DNA of 23,936 nt, filler included, from an uncultured virus (IMG/VR IMGVR_UViG_2049941000_000296) (taxonomy: Duplodnaviria; Heunggongvirae; Uroviricota; Caudoviricetes). It is 17 parts of one record of this genome, joined end to end, with 100 filler letters (N's around TTAATTAATTAA, not from the genome) between each part and the next. Parts side by side here need not be neighbours in the genome. Positions count along the whole stretch, not along the records: positions 7,164 to 7,455 come from IMGVR_UViG_2049941000_000296; positions 7,556 to 7,959 come from IMGVR_UViG_2049941000_000296; positions 8,060 to 8,445 come from IMGVR_UViG_2049941000_000296; positions 8,546 to 9,431 come from IMGVR_UViG_2049941000_000296; positions 9,532 to 11,991 come from IMGVR_UViG_2049941000_000296; 12 more parts are not named here. One strand, written 5' to 3'. Position 1 is the stretch's first letter. Each line of letters starts with the position of its first letter. Positions 5,514-10,996 of this stretch are shown in pieces. The position numbers were made by a program, and so were the translations under genes. The notes under the pieces are model-generated. The model was not told the DNA's origin. It made no database searches and saw only the letters and a list, made by a program, of their open reading frames with translations.

Positions 5514-5864
5514 CACCGTCCTGGTGGAAGATATAGACCAGCAACTCAAAGCACAAGGAAACCGATTCCACCGCGAGAAGAAACAATACATCAAGAACTA
5601 CGCACGGAGCCTTGAACAAGCAAGGTATTGGATGGAAAAATTCGGGCTTGACACCTCTTGCTGGGAGGCGGTCGGGGAAGATGGACGCGCATACTCAAAT
5701 GTGATTGCCGATGCAAACGAACTGATCCGCCTCGTTATGCTCTACATTGACCGCGCACATGCGGAAGATGGCTACTATAAGATTTTTCGCTTCCTTCGTT
5801 CCTTGCCAGAGAACGGAATATTCCCCGAATGGTACATCGGCCGTTTCAATATGCACCATGTATG
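5514..5864 (+). CDS. Hypothetical helical phage protein fragment (misplaced contig)
   Basis: Open frame TVLVEDIDQQLKAQG...YYKIFRFLRSLPENGIF, unrelated to the flanking HNH halves. Confidence 0.6.
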
Positions 5865-5874
5865 NNNNNNNNNN

Positions 5875-6061
5875 TGTACTCATCACCCACGGTGGAGAGA
5901 CTCATACCGTTACGGAGTGGAGTAGGATAACCGGCATAAACAGAACCACGCTTCAACTCCGTATGAAAAACGGCTGGGATGACGATATGTTGTTCTCAAA
6001 ACCGATGCTTGGTGGAAAAAGAATAAAGGGACAATGCTATGGAAGGAAACAACAAAAATGA
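5875..6061 (+). CDS. C-terminal DNA-binding part of the HNH endonuclease
   Basis: VLITHGGETHTVTEWSRITGINRTTLQLRMKNGW is the usual tail of the family seen at 5011-5503. Confidence 0.8.
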
Positions 6062-6106
6062 GGGCAAGCACCCACCTTTGAATTGGCTCGTCAATGNNNN
6101 NNNNNN

Positions 6107-6568
6107 GACGATACTACTGATAATATTCGCACTCTGCACATTCGCCCTGCTCGTTTGGGTACTCTGGAAGATGACCGAACTTGACGAACGCCAGGAGGAA
6201 CTGGACAAGTATTCAGTCCACCTGGACGAAAGGGCGAACCGAATAGCGGCAGAGGAGGGAACCCTACGAAACCTTTCCGTATCGTTCAAGCGCGAGATTG
6301 ATGCCTTCCACAACCGCGACATCTACACCGCATCCTACACCGAAACCGATTCGGATTTGATGAAATACACCACCGATGCGTCGATGGCATCCCNNNNNNN
6401 NNNNNNNNNNNNNNNNNNNNNNNNNNNNNNNNNNNNNNNNNNNNNNNNNNAAGGCACATCGCGAACGCCATCGCACAGGACATCGTCAAGCAGTTCAAGG
6501 CCATAGAGAGCAAGACCGAGGACGGCAGGCGGCGGTTCACCTACAAGTTCAAGATCGTGGAACAATGA
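6107..6568 (+). CDS. Membrane-anchored coiled-coil hypothetical protein (gapped)
   Basis: TM segment ILLIIFALCTFALLVWVLW, then a coiled coil. After the gap, RHIANAIAQDIVKQF...FTYKFKIVEQ ends at TGA 6566-6568; the join across the gap is assumed. Confidence 0.55.
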
Positions 6569-6753
6569 CACAANNNNNNNNNNNNNNNNNNNNNNNNNNN
6601 NNNNNNNNNNNNNNNNNNNNNNNNNNNNNNNNNNNNNNNNNNNNNNNNNNNNNNNNNNNNNNNNNNNNNNNNNNNNNNNNNNNNNNNNNNNNNNNNGTTG
6701 CAACAATTCAAGAGGTTTGAGGAACTATTGTTAAACGATTAAATACAAAAGAA

Positions 6754-7020
6754 ATGGAAGTTGTCATTGAAATCAAGGAGAAAAAATTGAGGGACGATTA
6801 TTTCCCTTGCTTGTTTGCCAACAACAACAAAAGTGTTGTAATTTTGGCAGACGGAAGAACATCCGAAAAGACTTTTTCCGGGATGGTTATCTACGCCGCC
6901 GGGGACGACCGCAAAAGGGCGGCACTCGGCACTTATTCTACCGGGTGGACATACTCACAATTCACAAGGTTGCCGAAAGGTTCGGAAATAACTCTTTGCA
7001 TCACGCAGGAAAATGGATAG
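6754..7020 (+). CDS. Hypothetical protein (88 aa)
   Basis: Complete ORF with A-rich leader; overlaps the next start at about 7013. Confidence 0.7.
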   Translation: MEVVIEIKEKKLRDDYFPCLFANNNKSVVILADGRTSEKTFSGMVIYAAGDDRKRAALGTYSTGWTYSQFTRLPKGSEITLCITQENG

Positions 7021-7178: not shown

Positions 7179-7283
7179 CTATTTCAATCTCTCTGCGTAT
7201 TGCTTCGGGGCGAGGGTTTCCTCCGGCTTGATGTAAGCCTTGTTCGTGAAAAGAAGAATGGCGGCGATGATCATTTGGGTCAT
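7179..7283 (-). CDS. Small peptide (34 aa) with hydrophobic N-terminus
   Basis: MTQMIIAAILLFTNKAYIKPEETLAPKQYAERLK; ATG 11 nt after the upstream stop in an AATAATT context. Confidence 0.45.
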   Translation of the reverse strand: MTQMIIAAILLFTNKAYIKPEETLAPKQYAERLK

Positions 7284-7294
7284 AATTATTGCGG

Positions 7295-7455
7295 TTAAAA
7301 TGAATAGCCAAATGTCGCACCAACTCCCGCGTATGGCTGGAACCCTTTCGGAGTGAAACCGACTCCCAACTGCGGGCCGAGTGTCCAACTCCAATGCTTG
7401 CGGTAGGGGACGGCCACGAATGTCTCCTTCTGCCTTATCCAGATGTCAGTCATCT
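7295..7455 (-). CDS. C-terminus of DUF6808-like lysis-cassette protein (absent from ORF track)
   Basis: MTDIWIRQKETFVAVPYRKHWSWTLGPQLGVGFTPKGFQPYAGVGATFGYSF then stop. Plausibly continues 9865-10236. Confidence 0.75.
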
Positions 7456-7555
7456 NNNNNNNNNNNNNNNNNNNNNNNNNNNNNNNNNNNNNNNNNNNNT
7501 TAATTAATTAANNNNNNNNNNNNNNNNNNNNNNNNNNNNNNNNNNNNNNNNNNNN

Positions 7556-7959
7556 GGAAGGTTTCCGACATCAAACGGGGCACGGAACTGCGTAGCGGAA
7601 CCCGTCTTTATCTTCGGAAGTGTTTGCGGAACGGCCTGCGACACCAAGACGGAGCCGGTTATCACCGTCGAGTCGCTATGCCTCACGGCAGACCAACTGA
7701 CACTCTGCAAGGTGTAAGCCTTCGACATATCGTTGGTCTGCGTGTCCGTCCCCTCGACATTCGCGGCCACCAGCGACGCGGTGATGTTGCCCCGTTTCAG
7801 CCAGCACATCCTCTTGTCCTCAATCGTGAGACCGCTCGTCGAAATCTTGTAGACATTCTCGGCAGGTTCGACGATTGTGATGACCCTATGACCGTACCCA
7901 TCCTCGGTATTGAGACTCCACAAGGCTCTGTCATAGGTGTTCGACCAGGCGGCCTGGGC
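7556..7959 (-). CDS. Beta-rich, probably tail-associated protein fragment
   Basis: Open across the whole contig, S/T/V-rich, on the late strand. May continue the gene starting at 8419. Confidence 0.5.
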
Positions 7960-8059
7960 NNNNNNNNNNNNNNNNNNNNNNNNNNNNNNNNNNNNNNNNN
8001 NNNTTAATTAATTAANNNNNNNNNNNNNNNNNNNNNNNNNNNNNNNNNNNNNNNNNNNN

Positions 8060-8419
8060 CGGAATCGAGAGCCCGCAAGTCGCGTTCACGCCCGTAAGGC
8101 CTCGCCACCAATCGGCACTCGACTTCCATACCATTCGGTGGCTCGCCGTGTCCTCCTCCAGTTGGTCGTAGGTGTCCATTCCTGGGTGTACGACCGGCTT
8201 GTATTTCGCCCACTTGTTGATGCGATTGACCGGACGGAGGGCATAGATAGGGTTTCCTTGCCCATCCAAGACTCCGGTATCGTACCACTCTTGGTCGGAG
8301 CATAGCTGACCGAGGTCGCCAGTGCCCCTTTCGAGTACCTGCTGGAGGTCGGCGATCTCGACACCCTTGTTCGGGGTGGTGGAAGTGTCTATGTATATGC
8401 GTCCGTTCTGGTGTGCCAT
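8060..8419 (-). CDS. Tail-fibre-region protein, N-terminal part
   Basis: MAHQNGRIY...IADLQQVL...DLGQLCS...INKWAKYKPV is a motif I recognise from Bacteroidales phage tail regions. Confidence 0.65.
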
Positions 8420-8545
8420 ATTATTCGCCACTTACTTTCGTTCTCNNNNNNNNNNNNNNNNNNNNNNNNNNNNNNNNNNNNNNNNNNNNTTAATTAATTA
8501 ANNNNNNNNNNNNNNNNNNNNNNNNNNNNNNNNNNNNNNNNNNNN

Positions 8546-8737
8546 CGAACTCGTCGCCAGGGTACTCGTTGGACTGCCCGGCGTTTTCAAGTCCGCGAAC
8601 GGGGTAGTCCGTGTTCGGGAACCATTGGGAGAGGGACTCGTCCTCGGTGCGCCAGCATTCCAGCACCCACGCATCGTTCGTGGAGTCGTACTGAACGGAG
8701 TTGATGGCAAATGACCGCCCGGCACACTTGCCGGTAC
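8546..8737 (-). CDS. Baseplate hub/Tal-like tail protein, internal fragment
   Basis: TGKCAGRSFAINSVQYDSTNDAWVLECWRTEDESLSQWFPNTDYPV...PGDEF, in a different frame from the supplied 8498-9337 ORF. Confidence 0.55.
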
Positions 8738-8747
8738 NNNNNNNNNN

Positions 8748-9431
8748 AGCGCGTTTGATTCTATCCCTATCCCTTCCTTATCCGCTTTTATTGCAACATC
8801 TTGAGCGAGGGTGTTCTGTGCGTCCGTTCCCTCAATAACGCCAGTTCCGAGATTTGGGCCAGGAACATTTATGGCTGAATAAATTGCCGTTGTCATTCGT
8901 AATTGGCAATTTGCTACCGAAATCGGTACGGCGAGTTGCCTCATTAACCATTTGAAAACGACAAAGGCTTGCAACAAACACGGCAACCCTTCTTGCGTAT
9001 GAGTGCCGTCAGGCGACAGATGTCCTCTATCCCCCAAGGAATCAAGGTCAGTTGAAAGCGCCCGATATACCGCAATGCCAGGGGAAAGCATTGATTCTGC
9101 AATAGTTGTTTTTAAAATCAACTCGTTTCCTGCCTTTGTCATATTGAAAACCGATGTGGCAGATGAACGCAGCGGTGCGTGAAAAAGCGTGACGACCTTG
9201 AAGTTCTTATTGTAGTTGCTTTTTATGTACGAAAGGCAGTTGTTAAAATCCGTGCAATCCGTGTAGGTGTTCTTGTAGTTGAAATACTCTTGCAAGCAAA
9301 CAATGTCAAAAACGTAAGACGACAATATGGAAGACATCGTGACCGAGTTGTTGTAGTTGGTCCACGAGGTGTTGTTCTCACATACGCTGAATATCTCCGC
9401 CGTATTGTTGTTCGTAAACTTCGTGTATTGC
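8748..9431 (-). CDS. SGNH/GDSL-fold esterase-like domain (DUF4886-like), fragment
   Basis: FDIVCLQE, MLSPGIAVYRALST, LSPDGTHTQEG (DxxH block V). Block I (GxS) is not in view. Visibly more AT-rich than the flanks. Confidence 0.65.
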
Positions 9432-9531
9432 NNNNNNNNNNNNNNNNNNNNNNNNNNNNNNNNNNNNNNNNNNNNTTAATTAATTAANNNNNNNNNNNNN
9501 NNNNNNNNNNNNNNNNNNNNNNNNNNNNNNN

Positions 9532-9854
9532 TTCTTCACATCGGTCGGCCTTGCAGGATGCCCCTCGCGAAGATAGGCATAGAGGCTCGCCCGCGTGATG
9601 CCGGTAAGTTGGATGTAGCCGGAAAGGGCGATGGGGATGGAGACATTTCGGACTCCGGCGGCGGCGGAATCGAACACCACGGACTCCGTGAGGATGGTCT
9701 GCACGACAATCTCCGCTCCCGCAGGAACACTTTGAGTGTGGCTATACGAAACACTTTGGTAATCCGTGAAGATGGTCTGCTTGCCGTCCTCACCGGCCAA
9801 TCCGCTGTCGAACGATGCCGGGGCGGAAAGGACTTGGTCTATCCGTTGCGAGGG
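9532..9854 (-). CDS. Tail protein internal fragment (probably Tal/hub)
   Basis: Open frame PSQRIDQVLSAPASFDSG...; beta-rich; late strand. Confidence 0.5.
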
Positions 9855-9864
9855 NNNNNNNNNN

Positions 9865-10236
9865 CGATAGCCACGGATCGTAACGCGGTAGTTCTCGCTT
9901 GCATATCCCTTCTCGCTTATCGGAACATCAACCAGCACCGAGTCCACAACTTGCAGGGTGTCGCGGAGATAGGTCGTGTCGTGGACGGGGAGGTAGGCTG
10001 TCTGCCAGCGGACGATGACGGAATCCCTCGGCNNNNNNNNNNNNNNNNNNNNNNNNNNNNNNNNNNNNNNNNNNNNNNNNNNNNNNNNTGTCGCGAACCC
10101 ATTTCTCCACGATAACCGTATCGGGGCGATTTAAGGCACTTTCGTACCTTTTCCGAGTAATTGTACTACCGAGCCAAAACGATGCGACTACGGCCAAAAG
10201 AACGGCTATTAGAAGGAAGATGGACGGCTTTCTCAT
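9865..10236 (-). CDS. DUF6808-like membrane protein, N-terminal and middle parts (candidate spanin)
   Basis: TM IFLLIAVLLAVVASFWLG, then RPDTVIVEKWVRD, a gap, and PRDSVIVRWQTAYLPVHDTTYLRDTLQVVDSVLVDVPISEKGYASENYRVTIRGY. Downstream of the lysin. Confidence 0.75.
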
Positions 10237-10284
10237 TTCTTATTCAAATTCATTGGCGGTTTCTTTGAATAGCCAGACTCTTAT

Positions 10285-10404
10285 TCAAGTTTCCGTGATT
10301 GTCCAAGTGCCGGGTTCGAGGTTCATAGAACCGAAGAAATGGGCATCGGCCTCGTTCTCATACGGGCCGTAAGCCTCCTCCGTTGAAGTGATGACCCACC
10401 ACAT
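10285..10404 (-). CDS. Small hypothetical protein (39 aa; absent from ORF track)
   Basis: MWWVITSTEEAYGPYENEADAHFFGSMNLEPGTWTITET; TAATG-coupled to the lysin stop. Confidence 0.6.
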   Translation of the reverse strand: MWWVITSTEEAYGPYENEADAHFFGSMNLEPGTWTITET

Positions 10405-10862
10405 TACACAATCTCAATCGTGATGTCCTCGCCCTTCTCCCACACCGGGACGAGTTGCTTCATCAGCTCGTCGTACCTCTTGGTGGAGTTGAGTACTTTG
10501 CCGACCTTGAGGTTGTCCCCCGGGGCGCAACAGCCGAGTAACTCCGACGCGGAATTGGCGGGATGAATCCTCACGCCTGACCAACCCTTGACATCGAGGA
10601 TTTCCGGGACAAGACCGCCCCACTTCTTCGCCCACGGCCTATCCTTGAACTTGGGCGAGACGGAGAGGACAACCTTGTATGTTCCCTTTGGGATTGCAGT
10701 ACGACCGTACACCTTAATTTGGTTGATTTTCCCGGTCGGCATCGTCTGGACAAGGCCCCTGTCCTCGTCCTCTAGCGATTCGCACAACCGCTTGCCAGAC
10801 ACATAGAATACACCGATGCAGTAGCCCTTTTTCGGCCACTTGCGCCAAATCTTGAGTTTCAT
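10404..10862 (-). CDS. DUF5675-like protein, putative endolysin (YkuD/L,D-transpeptidase-like His/Cys motif)
   Basis: CESLED.DRGL, KVYGRTAIPKGTY, SPKF, GVRIHPAN......GC. Confidence 0.85.
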   Translation of the reverse strand: MKLKIWRKWPKKGYCIGVFYVSGKRLCESLEDEDRGLVQTMPTGKINQIKVYGRTAIPKGTYKVVLSVSPKFKDRPWAKKWGGLVPEILDVKGWSGVRIHPANSASELLGCCAPGDNLKVGKVLNSTKRYDELMKQLVPVWEKGEDITIEIV

Positions 10863-10986
10863 TTCTTACCTCCTTTCTTGGGTGCGAACTGGCCGTTCTT
10901 GGCCCTGGGCTGCTTGGACTTCCTGGCATCTTTCAGGATGGACTCAACCGCATCCTCCTCGCATTGGAGTTTCCGGGCGATCTCGC
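10859..10986 (-). CDS. Basic C-terminal tail of a probable holin
   Basis: EIARKLQCEEDAVESILKDARKSKQPRAKNGQFAPKKGGKK with an ATGA overlap onto the lysin. The call is positional; no TM segments are in view. Confidence 0.45.
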
Positions 10987-10996
10987 NNNNNNNNNN

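Follow-up and report, generated by a model that had tools for sequence, protein, structure and literature searches.

A DUF6808 gene in a holin–lysin cassette

The DNA considered here is a stretch of 23,936 bases (the window) from the uncultured virus IMGVR_UViG_2049941000_000296, a rumen phage, and the element in question is a gene of the protein family DUF6808 that follows the endolysin gene in its lysis cassette. The minus strand of the window carries, in this order, a holin stub, a DUF5675 lysin, a 39-amino-acid open reading frame (ORF) and the DUF6808 gene. The stub (10859–10986) encodes the C-terminal ~42 amino acids of the holin, the remainder of which is lost in a joint of 10 N's at 10987–10996. 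It resembles the C-terminus of a 188-amino-acid protein of the related locus L089 that matches Phage_holin_4_1 with 25.4 bits (cut-off 22.2) and the PHROG 199 holin. The candidate endolysin (10404–10862, 152 amino acids) belongs to DUF5675 (Pfam E value 8.1e-25, 87.3 bits) and phrog_1501. A lysin preprint places DUF5675 structurally with C82 peptidases (bioRxiv 10.64898/2026.04.11.717860), and no relative of DUF5675 was found in the PDB by sequence. The conserved 39-residue ORF (10285–10404) lies between the lysin and the gene in the spanin slot, and no match to it was found in Pfam or PHROG. The DUF6808 gene is distributed over three pieces. The first (10089–10236) holds codons 1–49, with the start codon, a short basic N-terminus, a hydrophobic helix of ~23 residues devoid of Cys and a basic juxtamembrane stretch, and matches the N-terminus of the full-length relatives P0001 to P0010. 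The second (9865–10032) holds codons 54–108, a β-rich, presumably periplasmic part in which the Pfam domain begins. The third (7295–7455) holds codons 112–163 and the stop codon, and encodes the rest of the domain and a terminal amphipathic β-hairpin, rich in Gly and aromatic residues, that ends in Phe. The gene order is identical in the complete relative L089/G002, and an integrase lies beside the cassette in both L089 and the window.

The window contains 16 joints, each made of 44 N's, a 12-letter linker with stops in all frames and another 44 N's, together with many shorter N runs. It is therefore a pseudo-molecule of unordered scaffolds, and a continuous genome is excluded. Its translated pieces map in scrambled order and orientation to G002, a complete phage contig of 60,322 bp with direct terminal repeats (CheckV 100%). 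The span 7295–10236 takes in four unrelated scaffolds, and most of it is unrelated to the gene: pieces within 7556–9854, where mappable, fall at ~13.6–16.6 kb of G002, and the three gene pieces are contiguous at 5756–6834. None of the six ORFs from the intervening pieces matched PHROG, and a nucleotide search with both gene-bearing scaffolds gave no match among 50,697 phage records.

The first-pass annotation had supposed that the gene at 10236–9865 continues at 7455–7295, and public contigs bear this out. In translation, the minus strand yields 49 amino acids with a hydrophobic stretch and no Cys (10236–10089), 55 amino acids (10031–9867), and 52 amino acids followed by a stop codon (7453–7295). 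The last of these lies on a 292-bp scaffold that is present in 20 runs from 14 studies, all bovine or gut metagenomes. Logan contigs from four runs (X1, X2, X5 and X8, with X1 and X2 possibly being the source sample) were placed on 9532–10300. The contigs of all four have a loose end at 9865, and the 30-letter consensus of this end consists of the final 25 letters of the 292-bp scaffold (7431–7455) plus five more. The gap of 56 N's at 10033–10088 is bridged by contigs of three runs and has a true size of 10 letters (10032 to 10089, from X8). Counted by hand, the codons sum to 49 + 4 + 55 + 3 + 52 = 163, which equals the length of P0001, a protein of 163 amino acids found by searching with the C-terminal piece. 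P0001 is 100% identical to that piece over 100% of its length and, on reading, also includes the middle piece and, in near-identical form, the N-terminal one. Because the public contigs join 9865 directly to 7455, the three fragments form one gene of 163 codons, in agreement with their contiguity on G002 and the full-length P0001. The piece at 9532–9854 runs into other DNA (X1 has a loose end at 9854), so that the 10-N joint at 9855–9864 reflects no true adjacency. Several joints of this kind conceal ~1 kb or link non-adjacent DNA, 9855–9864 and 10987–10996 among them; piece mapping indicates that ~1.1 kb of G002 is absent at the latter.

By its sequence, the gene belongs over its full length to Pfam DUF6808 (PF20647; profile length 86, gathering cut-off 24.4 bits) and to phrog_26448, both of which lack an assigned function. 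The C-terminal piece alone scores 32.2 bits over profile positions 42–83 of 86, and the middle piece matches positions 1–26 with an E value of 0.015; on phrog_26448 the middle and C-terminal pieces cover positions 101–129 and 141–183 of 187. At full length, P0001 scores 58.7 bits over positions 1–83 of 86. A phmmer search of 1.84 billion cluster representatives returned 1,232 proteins at E ≤0.001 and 229 at ≤1e-10, nearly all of 150–190 amino acids, the family size being a count of clusters at 50% identity. ESM Atlas clusters named DUF6808 are 75–100% viral, and of 201 bacterial genomes sampled from the order, only 2 contained the family. Only one of 82 close relatives bears a name given by its source, 'hypothetical protein'. 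Relatives occur in 6 of 50,697 phage records, all as unnamed gene products, and four of these are cultured Bacteroides phages (BF1-TP2 gp45, BS-TP1 gp127, BS-TP4 and BKO1-TP3). No paper naming DUF6808 turned up in the literature searched. Fusion partners were considered as a functional clue and set aside, the two unusually long relatives P0026 (444 amino acids) and P0002 (222 amino acids) being chimeric in appearance and uninformative. P0002, encoded on a 59-kb contig, has a DnaB-like domain (PF00772) at its N-terminus, fused to the final ~109 residues of DUF6808, and probably arose by chimeric assembly or by recombination.

Exchange with u-spanins in the post-lysin slot

The gene had been described as a post-lysin gene, and comparison with related loci locates it in a holin–lysin cassette at precisely the position where relatives carry a unimolecular spanin (u-spanin). 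Of the 88 loci retrieved for relatives of the lysin, 87 had the lysin located by script. In these, we scored the slot for an ORF that combines a lipobox with a C-terminal transmembrane (TM) segment and begins −120 to +400 nt after the lysin. This u-spanin layout occupies the slot in 60 of the 87 DUF5675 loci, with the start mostly at 0 or −3 nt. The other slots contain DUF6808 (one locus), are truncated (one) or hold neither according to the script (25), and inspection by eye shows that L010 and L020, within the 25, also carry u-spanins. The closest relatives of the window lysin, in L009 (78% identity) and L010 (63%), are followed by a u-spanin, and L009 also retains the small ORF.

Pfam-recognised cell-wall hydrolases lie upstream on the same strand in 14 of the 15 DUF6808 loci with an upstream flank, some of these loci being near-duplicates from different samples. 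The hydrolases belong to Peptidase_M15_3 (six), DUF5675 (five), GH108 (two) and Amidase_3 (one), and in the fifteenth locus, L098, an unassigned 148-amino-acid protein follows the holin. GenBank annotation gives the same neighbourhood in BS-TP1, BF1-TP2 and csAssE-Sib. DUF6808 is independent of any one lysin family.

Canonical spanins were sought with an all-frame lipobox scan by a home-made regular expression, which can miss atypical signals. In the window, the scan gave a single hit, antisense and implausible, and no credible ORF, in keeping with the earlier observation that no lipobox ORF is visible in the lysis pieces. Since the window is gapped, the absence of a spanin rests on complete relatives. 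Across the 17 DUF6808 loci, the same strand gave no credible lipobox ORF other than two of the DUF6808 proteins themselves, the remaining hits being antisense. The scan of G002 (60,000 of 60,322 bases) retrieved only a 249-amino-acid lipoprotein without a C-terminal TM segment, 28 kb from the cassette, and a 59-amino-acid ORF. In BF1-TP2, the whole genome of 68,350 bp has no credible candidate, and no feature among the 83 annotated there is named spanin. An embedded, overlapping or adjacent lipoprotein partner of the outer-membrane (OM) type, an o-spanin, was likewise not credible anywhere in the window, the 17 loci, G002 or BF1-TP2. The first-pass annotation had considered a canonical spanin pair hidden in the gaps; no canonical spanin was found around the gene or in the complete G002 and BF1-TP2.

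The protein could alternatively play the o-spanin role in a two-protein spanin, with a separate inner-membrane (IM) protein as its partner, for example a protein with a TM helix and a coiled coil encoded upstream of the lysin. Proteins of this kind are indeed found there in L099 (2828–3205, phrog_32423), L100 (2887–3321), L101 (185–526) and L109 (2894–3340), and the notion of an outer-membrane protein (OMP) acting as o-spanin is raised as an untested idea in a spanin survey (Kongari et al. 2018, PMC6139136). However, cassettes of the window type (L089/G002, L098 and L111) have a multi-TM Phage_holin_4_1 holin and no coiled-coil protein at that place, and the coiled-coil proteins occupy the holin position and, by eye, share the basic tail of the holins. 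These single-helix proteins could be either holins or spanin partners, and we regard a two-protein arrangement as very unlikely.

The DUF6808 linker, measured from where the helix ends to where the hairpin begins, has a median length of 109 amino acids (interquartile range (IQR) 106–116, n = 148). In the u-spanins that occupy this slot, a stretch of matching length separates the lipid Cys from the C-terminal helix (median 117.5 amino acids, IQR 108–121, n = 56). Homology between the linker and the neighbouring u-spanins was considered and dropped, as hhalign gave a probability of 31% over 15 columns. A full-length hidden Markov model (HMM) of the family matched four u-spanin or slot proteins with E values of 2e-5 to 6e-4 in a set of 5,487 ORFs, and these matches rest on the hydrophobic N-terminus and on Asp-Thr repeats. 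Because the lengths agree without homology, they are better read as a shared physical requirement.

The OM step of lysis is indicated by the position in the cassette and the exchange with u-spanins, together with the matching length and the failure to find a canonical spanin. A gene at this place might instead be a moron, that is, a lysogenic-conversion envelope protein riding at the end of the late operon and serving, for example, superinfection exclusion or receptor masking. Genes 3' of lysis genes can be morons, as illustrated by bor of phage lambda, an envelope moron beside the lysis genes, and several DUF6808 carriers are temperate, L089 and the window having an integrase beside the cassette and BF1-TP2 an integrase and a repressor. 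A passenger gene of this type is nevertheless quite unlikely: the place beside four lysin families is kept in 14 of 15 loci, DUF6808 takes the u-spanin slot in otherwise similar cassettes, the carrier genomes show no other spanin, and few bacterial genomes (2 of 201) contain the family.

Other genes accompany these cassettes. Look-alikes of the 39-residue ORF, of 40–48 amino acids, occupy the same place in L009 (4456–4578), L098 (3705–3851), L109 (3782–3922) and L111 (3508–3648), so placed that a small soluble ORF of 39–48 amino acids accompanies either a u-spanin (L009) or DUF6808. A 34-amino-acid ORF of the window (7179–7283, minus strand) begins ~12 nt after the DUF6808 stop codon and has a short hydrophobic N-terminus; no PHROG match and no counterpart in L089 were found for it. 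After some DUF5675 lysins, in loci that also belong to the 25 left unassigned by the script, the slot is filled by other proteins with an N-terminal helix and a β-rich C-terminus (L021 1241–1813, L026 4672–5286, L038 4381–5007 and L078 4391–5017). They have Asp-Thr repeats, and their C-terminal β part is Gly-rich with basic residues at its very end; the L078 protein has a lipobox-like motif. The L038 and L078 proteins match phrog_25644 (function unassigned), and no family match was found for those of L021 and L026; all four may represent further families of the same design. Bacteroides phage B124-14 was tried as a DUF6808 carrier and rejected, since its post-lysin gene (L117 6765–7370, minus strand) encodes a DUF6549 protein. 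This protein follows a Peptidase_M15_3 lysin and has an N-terminal helix, a coiled-coil-like stretch and a β-rich end. The spanin survey counts B124-14 among the phages without a spanin (Kongari et al. 2018, PMC6139136).

Architecture of the DUF6808 proteins

Architecture was analysed over 156 family members of 140–200 amino acids, and alignment columns over 148 members. The uncharged run at the N-terminus has a median of 19 residues, with ~23 in the window protein, and the flank on its N-terminal side has a more positive net charge than that on its C-terminal side in 118 of the 156. Translation of the first 49 residues confirmed the Cys-free hydrophobic helix of the first-pass annotation. A second transmembrane segment is absent, as deduced from a maximum KD19 after residue 60 of 0.7 in P0001 and of at most 1.67 across the 156 members. 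The chain ends in Phe, Trp or Tyr in 128 of them. A Cys directly follows the N-terminal helix in 59 of the 156, typically with Arg or Lys before it, and the window protein has no such Cys. By analogy with Rz/Rz1, these juxtamembrane Cys residues could form intermolecular disulfides.

An AlphaFold2 (AF2) model of P0001 was built on the alignment of 148 sequences, with a mean pLDDT of 80.7. It shows a helix at residues 4–33 and seven strands (40–47, 58–68, 84–97, 101–106, 111–124, 132–145 and 148–161), the last two of which form the terminal hairpin. The linker, described earlier as extended, is predicted to be β-rich and free of coiled coil, and so not merely extended. Charged residues occur on both faces of the strands before the hairpin, which have a soluble look, as does the middle domain (residues 83–124), which is well conserved.

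The terminal hairpin has a different character. In the window protein, the residues at −9/−7/−5/−3/−1 from the C-terminus are V/A/F/Y/F, and this pattern, like the two amphipathic Gly-rich strands that had been noticed with it, is seen in translation and kept across the 148 members. The outward positions of both terminal strands are 82–100% hydrophobic, and the inward positions are 75–99% Gly, Ser, Thr or Gln, with five inward columns (137, 141, 143, 154 and 156) that are 89–99% Gly. Judged from these columns, the alternation of hydrophobic and small residues is far beyond chance. There are no charged residues at 132–144 and 151–158. A Lys/Arg collar (64–80% charged) precedes the first Trp of the hairpin, a tight Thr-Pro-x-Gly turn connects its two strands, and this uncharged unit of 30 residues is conserved more strictly than the remainder of the protein. 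The BAM (β-barrel assembly machinery) β-signal is a C-terminal consensus of outer-membrane barrel proteins, and a pattern resembling it is present and conserved at the end of DUF6808.

Structural searches with the AF2 model returned no relatives among solved folds. Foldseek against the PDB gave nothing at E ≤0.001 (all E >0.1), and the best match of VIA-align against 48,161 chains had a Z score of 3.3, with no match to a solved fold. The BFVD structure search gave only one hit at E ≤0.001, itself a DUF6808 protein, in addition to weak rows from flavobacterial phages.

The same architecture could be that of an inner-membrane lysis regulator, either antiholin-like or a periplasmic wall sensor, in which the β domain would be periplasmic and the hairpin would bind a partner instead of a membrane. 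Some holin regulators, such as T4 RI, likewise consist of a single N-terminal helix followed by a periplasmic domain, and the conserved, soluble-looking residues 83–124 would suit such a function. For a soluble domain, on the other hand, it is hard to explain why an uncharged hairpin with a fully hydrophobic face, a basic collar and an aromatic terminus should be so strictly conserved, which makes a regulator highly improbable.

Proposed mechanism and comparison with known systems

Based on these results, our favoured reading, to which we give slightly less than an even chance, is that DUF6808 is a lipoprotein-free, single-chain spanin analogue with inverted anchors that provides the OM step of the lysis cassette. 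We infer its topology, OM insertion, oligomerisation and role in lysis as follows. The N-terminal helix would be inserted by Sec as an uncleaved, N-in anchor of the inner membrane, and the β-forming linker of ~109 residues would pass through the periplasm and the peptidoglycan meshwork. The uncharged C-terminal hairpin, with its hydrophobic face, Gly-rich face, basic collar and aromatic C-terminus, would enter the OM, probably with the help of BAM, and would there form a homo-oligomeric mini-barrel or pair with a barrel of the host. After removal of the wall by the holin and the DUF5675 lysin, the linker may fold or collapse into the predicted sheet, and this collapse would draw the two membranes together and lead to their rupture or fusion. 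The first-pass annotation had likewise proposed an IM-anchored, lipoprotein-free system of OM disruption. That proposal is supported by the single gene, the spanin slot, the matching linker length and the failure to find a canonical spanin, and its remaining parts are what we infer.

Several features weigh against this interpretation. The AF2 monomer is an open sheet with membrane-like character in its last two strands only, and a lone hairpin is unable to span a membrane. The fit of the C-terminus to the BAM consensus is partial, and 28 of the 156 members lack an aromatic last residue. Lipobox-like motifs occur in 9 of the 156, the L111 and L090 proteins included, so that the type of N-terminal anchor varies. 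Profile–profile comparison detected no homology to the neighbouring u-spanins, and the temperate carriers and the position 3' of the lysis genes, discussed above, also suit a moron.

The N-terminus is the weakest link. Small residues follow the helix in the window protein, and cleavage after them is possible, in which case the N-terminus could be a long signal peptide. The protein would then be a secreted OM lysis protein with a mature length of ~135 amino acids and no IM tether, whose hairpin would mediate oligomerisation into a small pore or lesion that weakens the OM at lysis. The evidence from the cassette and the slot fits this alternative equally, the small residues are apt for signal peptidase, a homologue is annotated as 'signal peptide containing protein' in one GenBank record, and in roughly a quarter of the members the hydrophobic run is as short as 11–16 residues. 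By contrast, the run of ~23 residues here, like the family median of 19, is long for a signal peptide, and the helix extends to residue 33 in the AF2 model. The Cys that follows the helix in 59 of the 156 members, with Arg or Lys before it, suits neither signal peptidase by the −1/−3 rule, and a secreted protein gives no reason to predict a linker of u-spanin-like length. The length of the helix and the Arg/Lys-Cys motif thus argue for an anchor over a signal peptide, and we consider secretion unlikely. Were the helix cleaved, DUF6808 would still be a candidate OM lysis factor, but one that does not span the envelope.

A wider claim can be made only with more reserve. DUF6808 may constitute a third spanin architecture, composed of an IM helix and a BAM-inserted, homo-oligomerising, Gly-rich OM hairpin and not in need of the lipoprotein pathway, which would be widespread in phages of Bacteroidota and explain part of the phages without a spanin; we hold this to be possible but rather doubtful. 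Kongari et al. (2018, PMC6139136) looked for spanins in 677 phages of Gram-negative hosts, found none in 91, and remark, as an untested suggestion, that other types of anchor, including an OMP, might serve. Our literature search for work joining spanins with the β-signal found only unrelated work. Papers on BV01 and on P. gingivalis phages give ordinary spanin annotations, and for LambdaSo nested Rz/Rz1 genes are described. A large, unnamed and mostly viral family fits the spanin-less gap for phages of Bacteroidota because it swaps with u-spanins behind the same lysin, has the same periplasmic length and occurs in genomes without canonical spanins.

If the favoured reading is true, more than 1,000 protein clusters would gain a function, and lysis cassettes in gut and rumen viromes could be better annotated. 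OM disruption would be anchorable without the lipoprotein pathway, and the hairpin would offer a small natural substrate with which to study how the unusual BAM of Bacteroidota inserts β-hairpins. The reading is testable now, since the gene is present in cultured Bacteroides phages.

Trimeric autotransporter anchors and TolC are oligomeric OM barrels to which each subunit contributes few strands. DUF6808 likewise has short C-terminal amphipathic strands with inner-face Gly and an aromatic last residue, and a single subunit is likewise unable to close a barrel. Fold scores, however, are within noise (Z 2.4 for the Hia anchor and 2.5 for KdgM), DUF6808 has just two clearly membrane-like strands, and its N-terminus is kept in or cleaved at the IM and not exported as a passenger. 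With lambda Rz/Rz1, the family shares a putative N-terminal IM helix, as in the i-spanin Rz, and a presumed role after degradation of the wall. Rz/Rz1 spanins form disulfide-linked dimers, which the near-membrane Cys in 59 of the 156 DUF6808 proteins recalls. In contrast to Rz/Rz1, DUF6808 is a single gene, with AF2-predicted strands in place of the coiled coil and no lipoprotein partner found. A further comparison is with the u-spanins of the T1 gp11 type (survey PMC6139136). DUF6808 differs from these in the absence of an N-terminal lipobox Cys, of a C-terminal transmembrane helix and of detectable homology, and its anchors are in the reverse order, with a β-hairpin instead of a lipid as the presumed OM anchor. 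Like the u-spanins, it is nonetheless a single chain encoded directly after the endolysin, with a putative anchor element at each end and a middle part that is β-rich, free of coiled coil and of nearly equal length.

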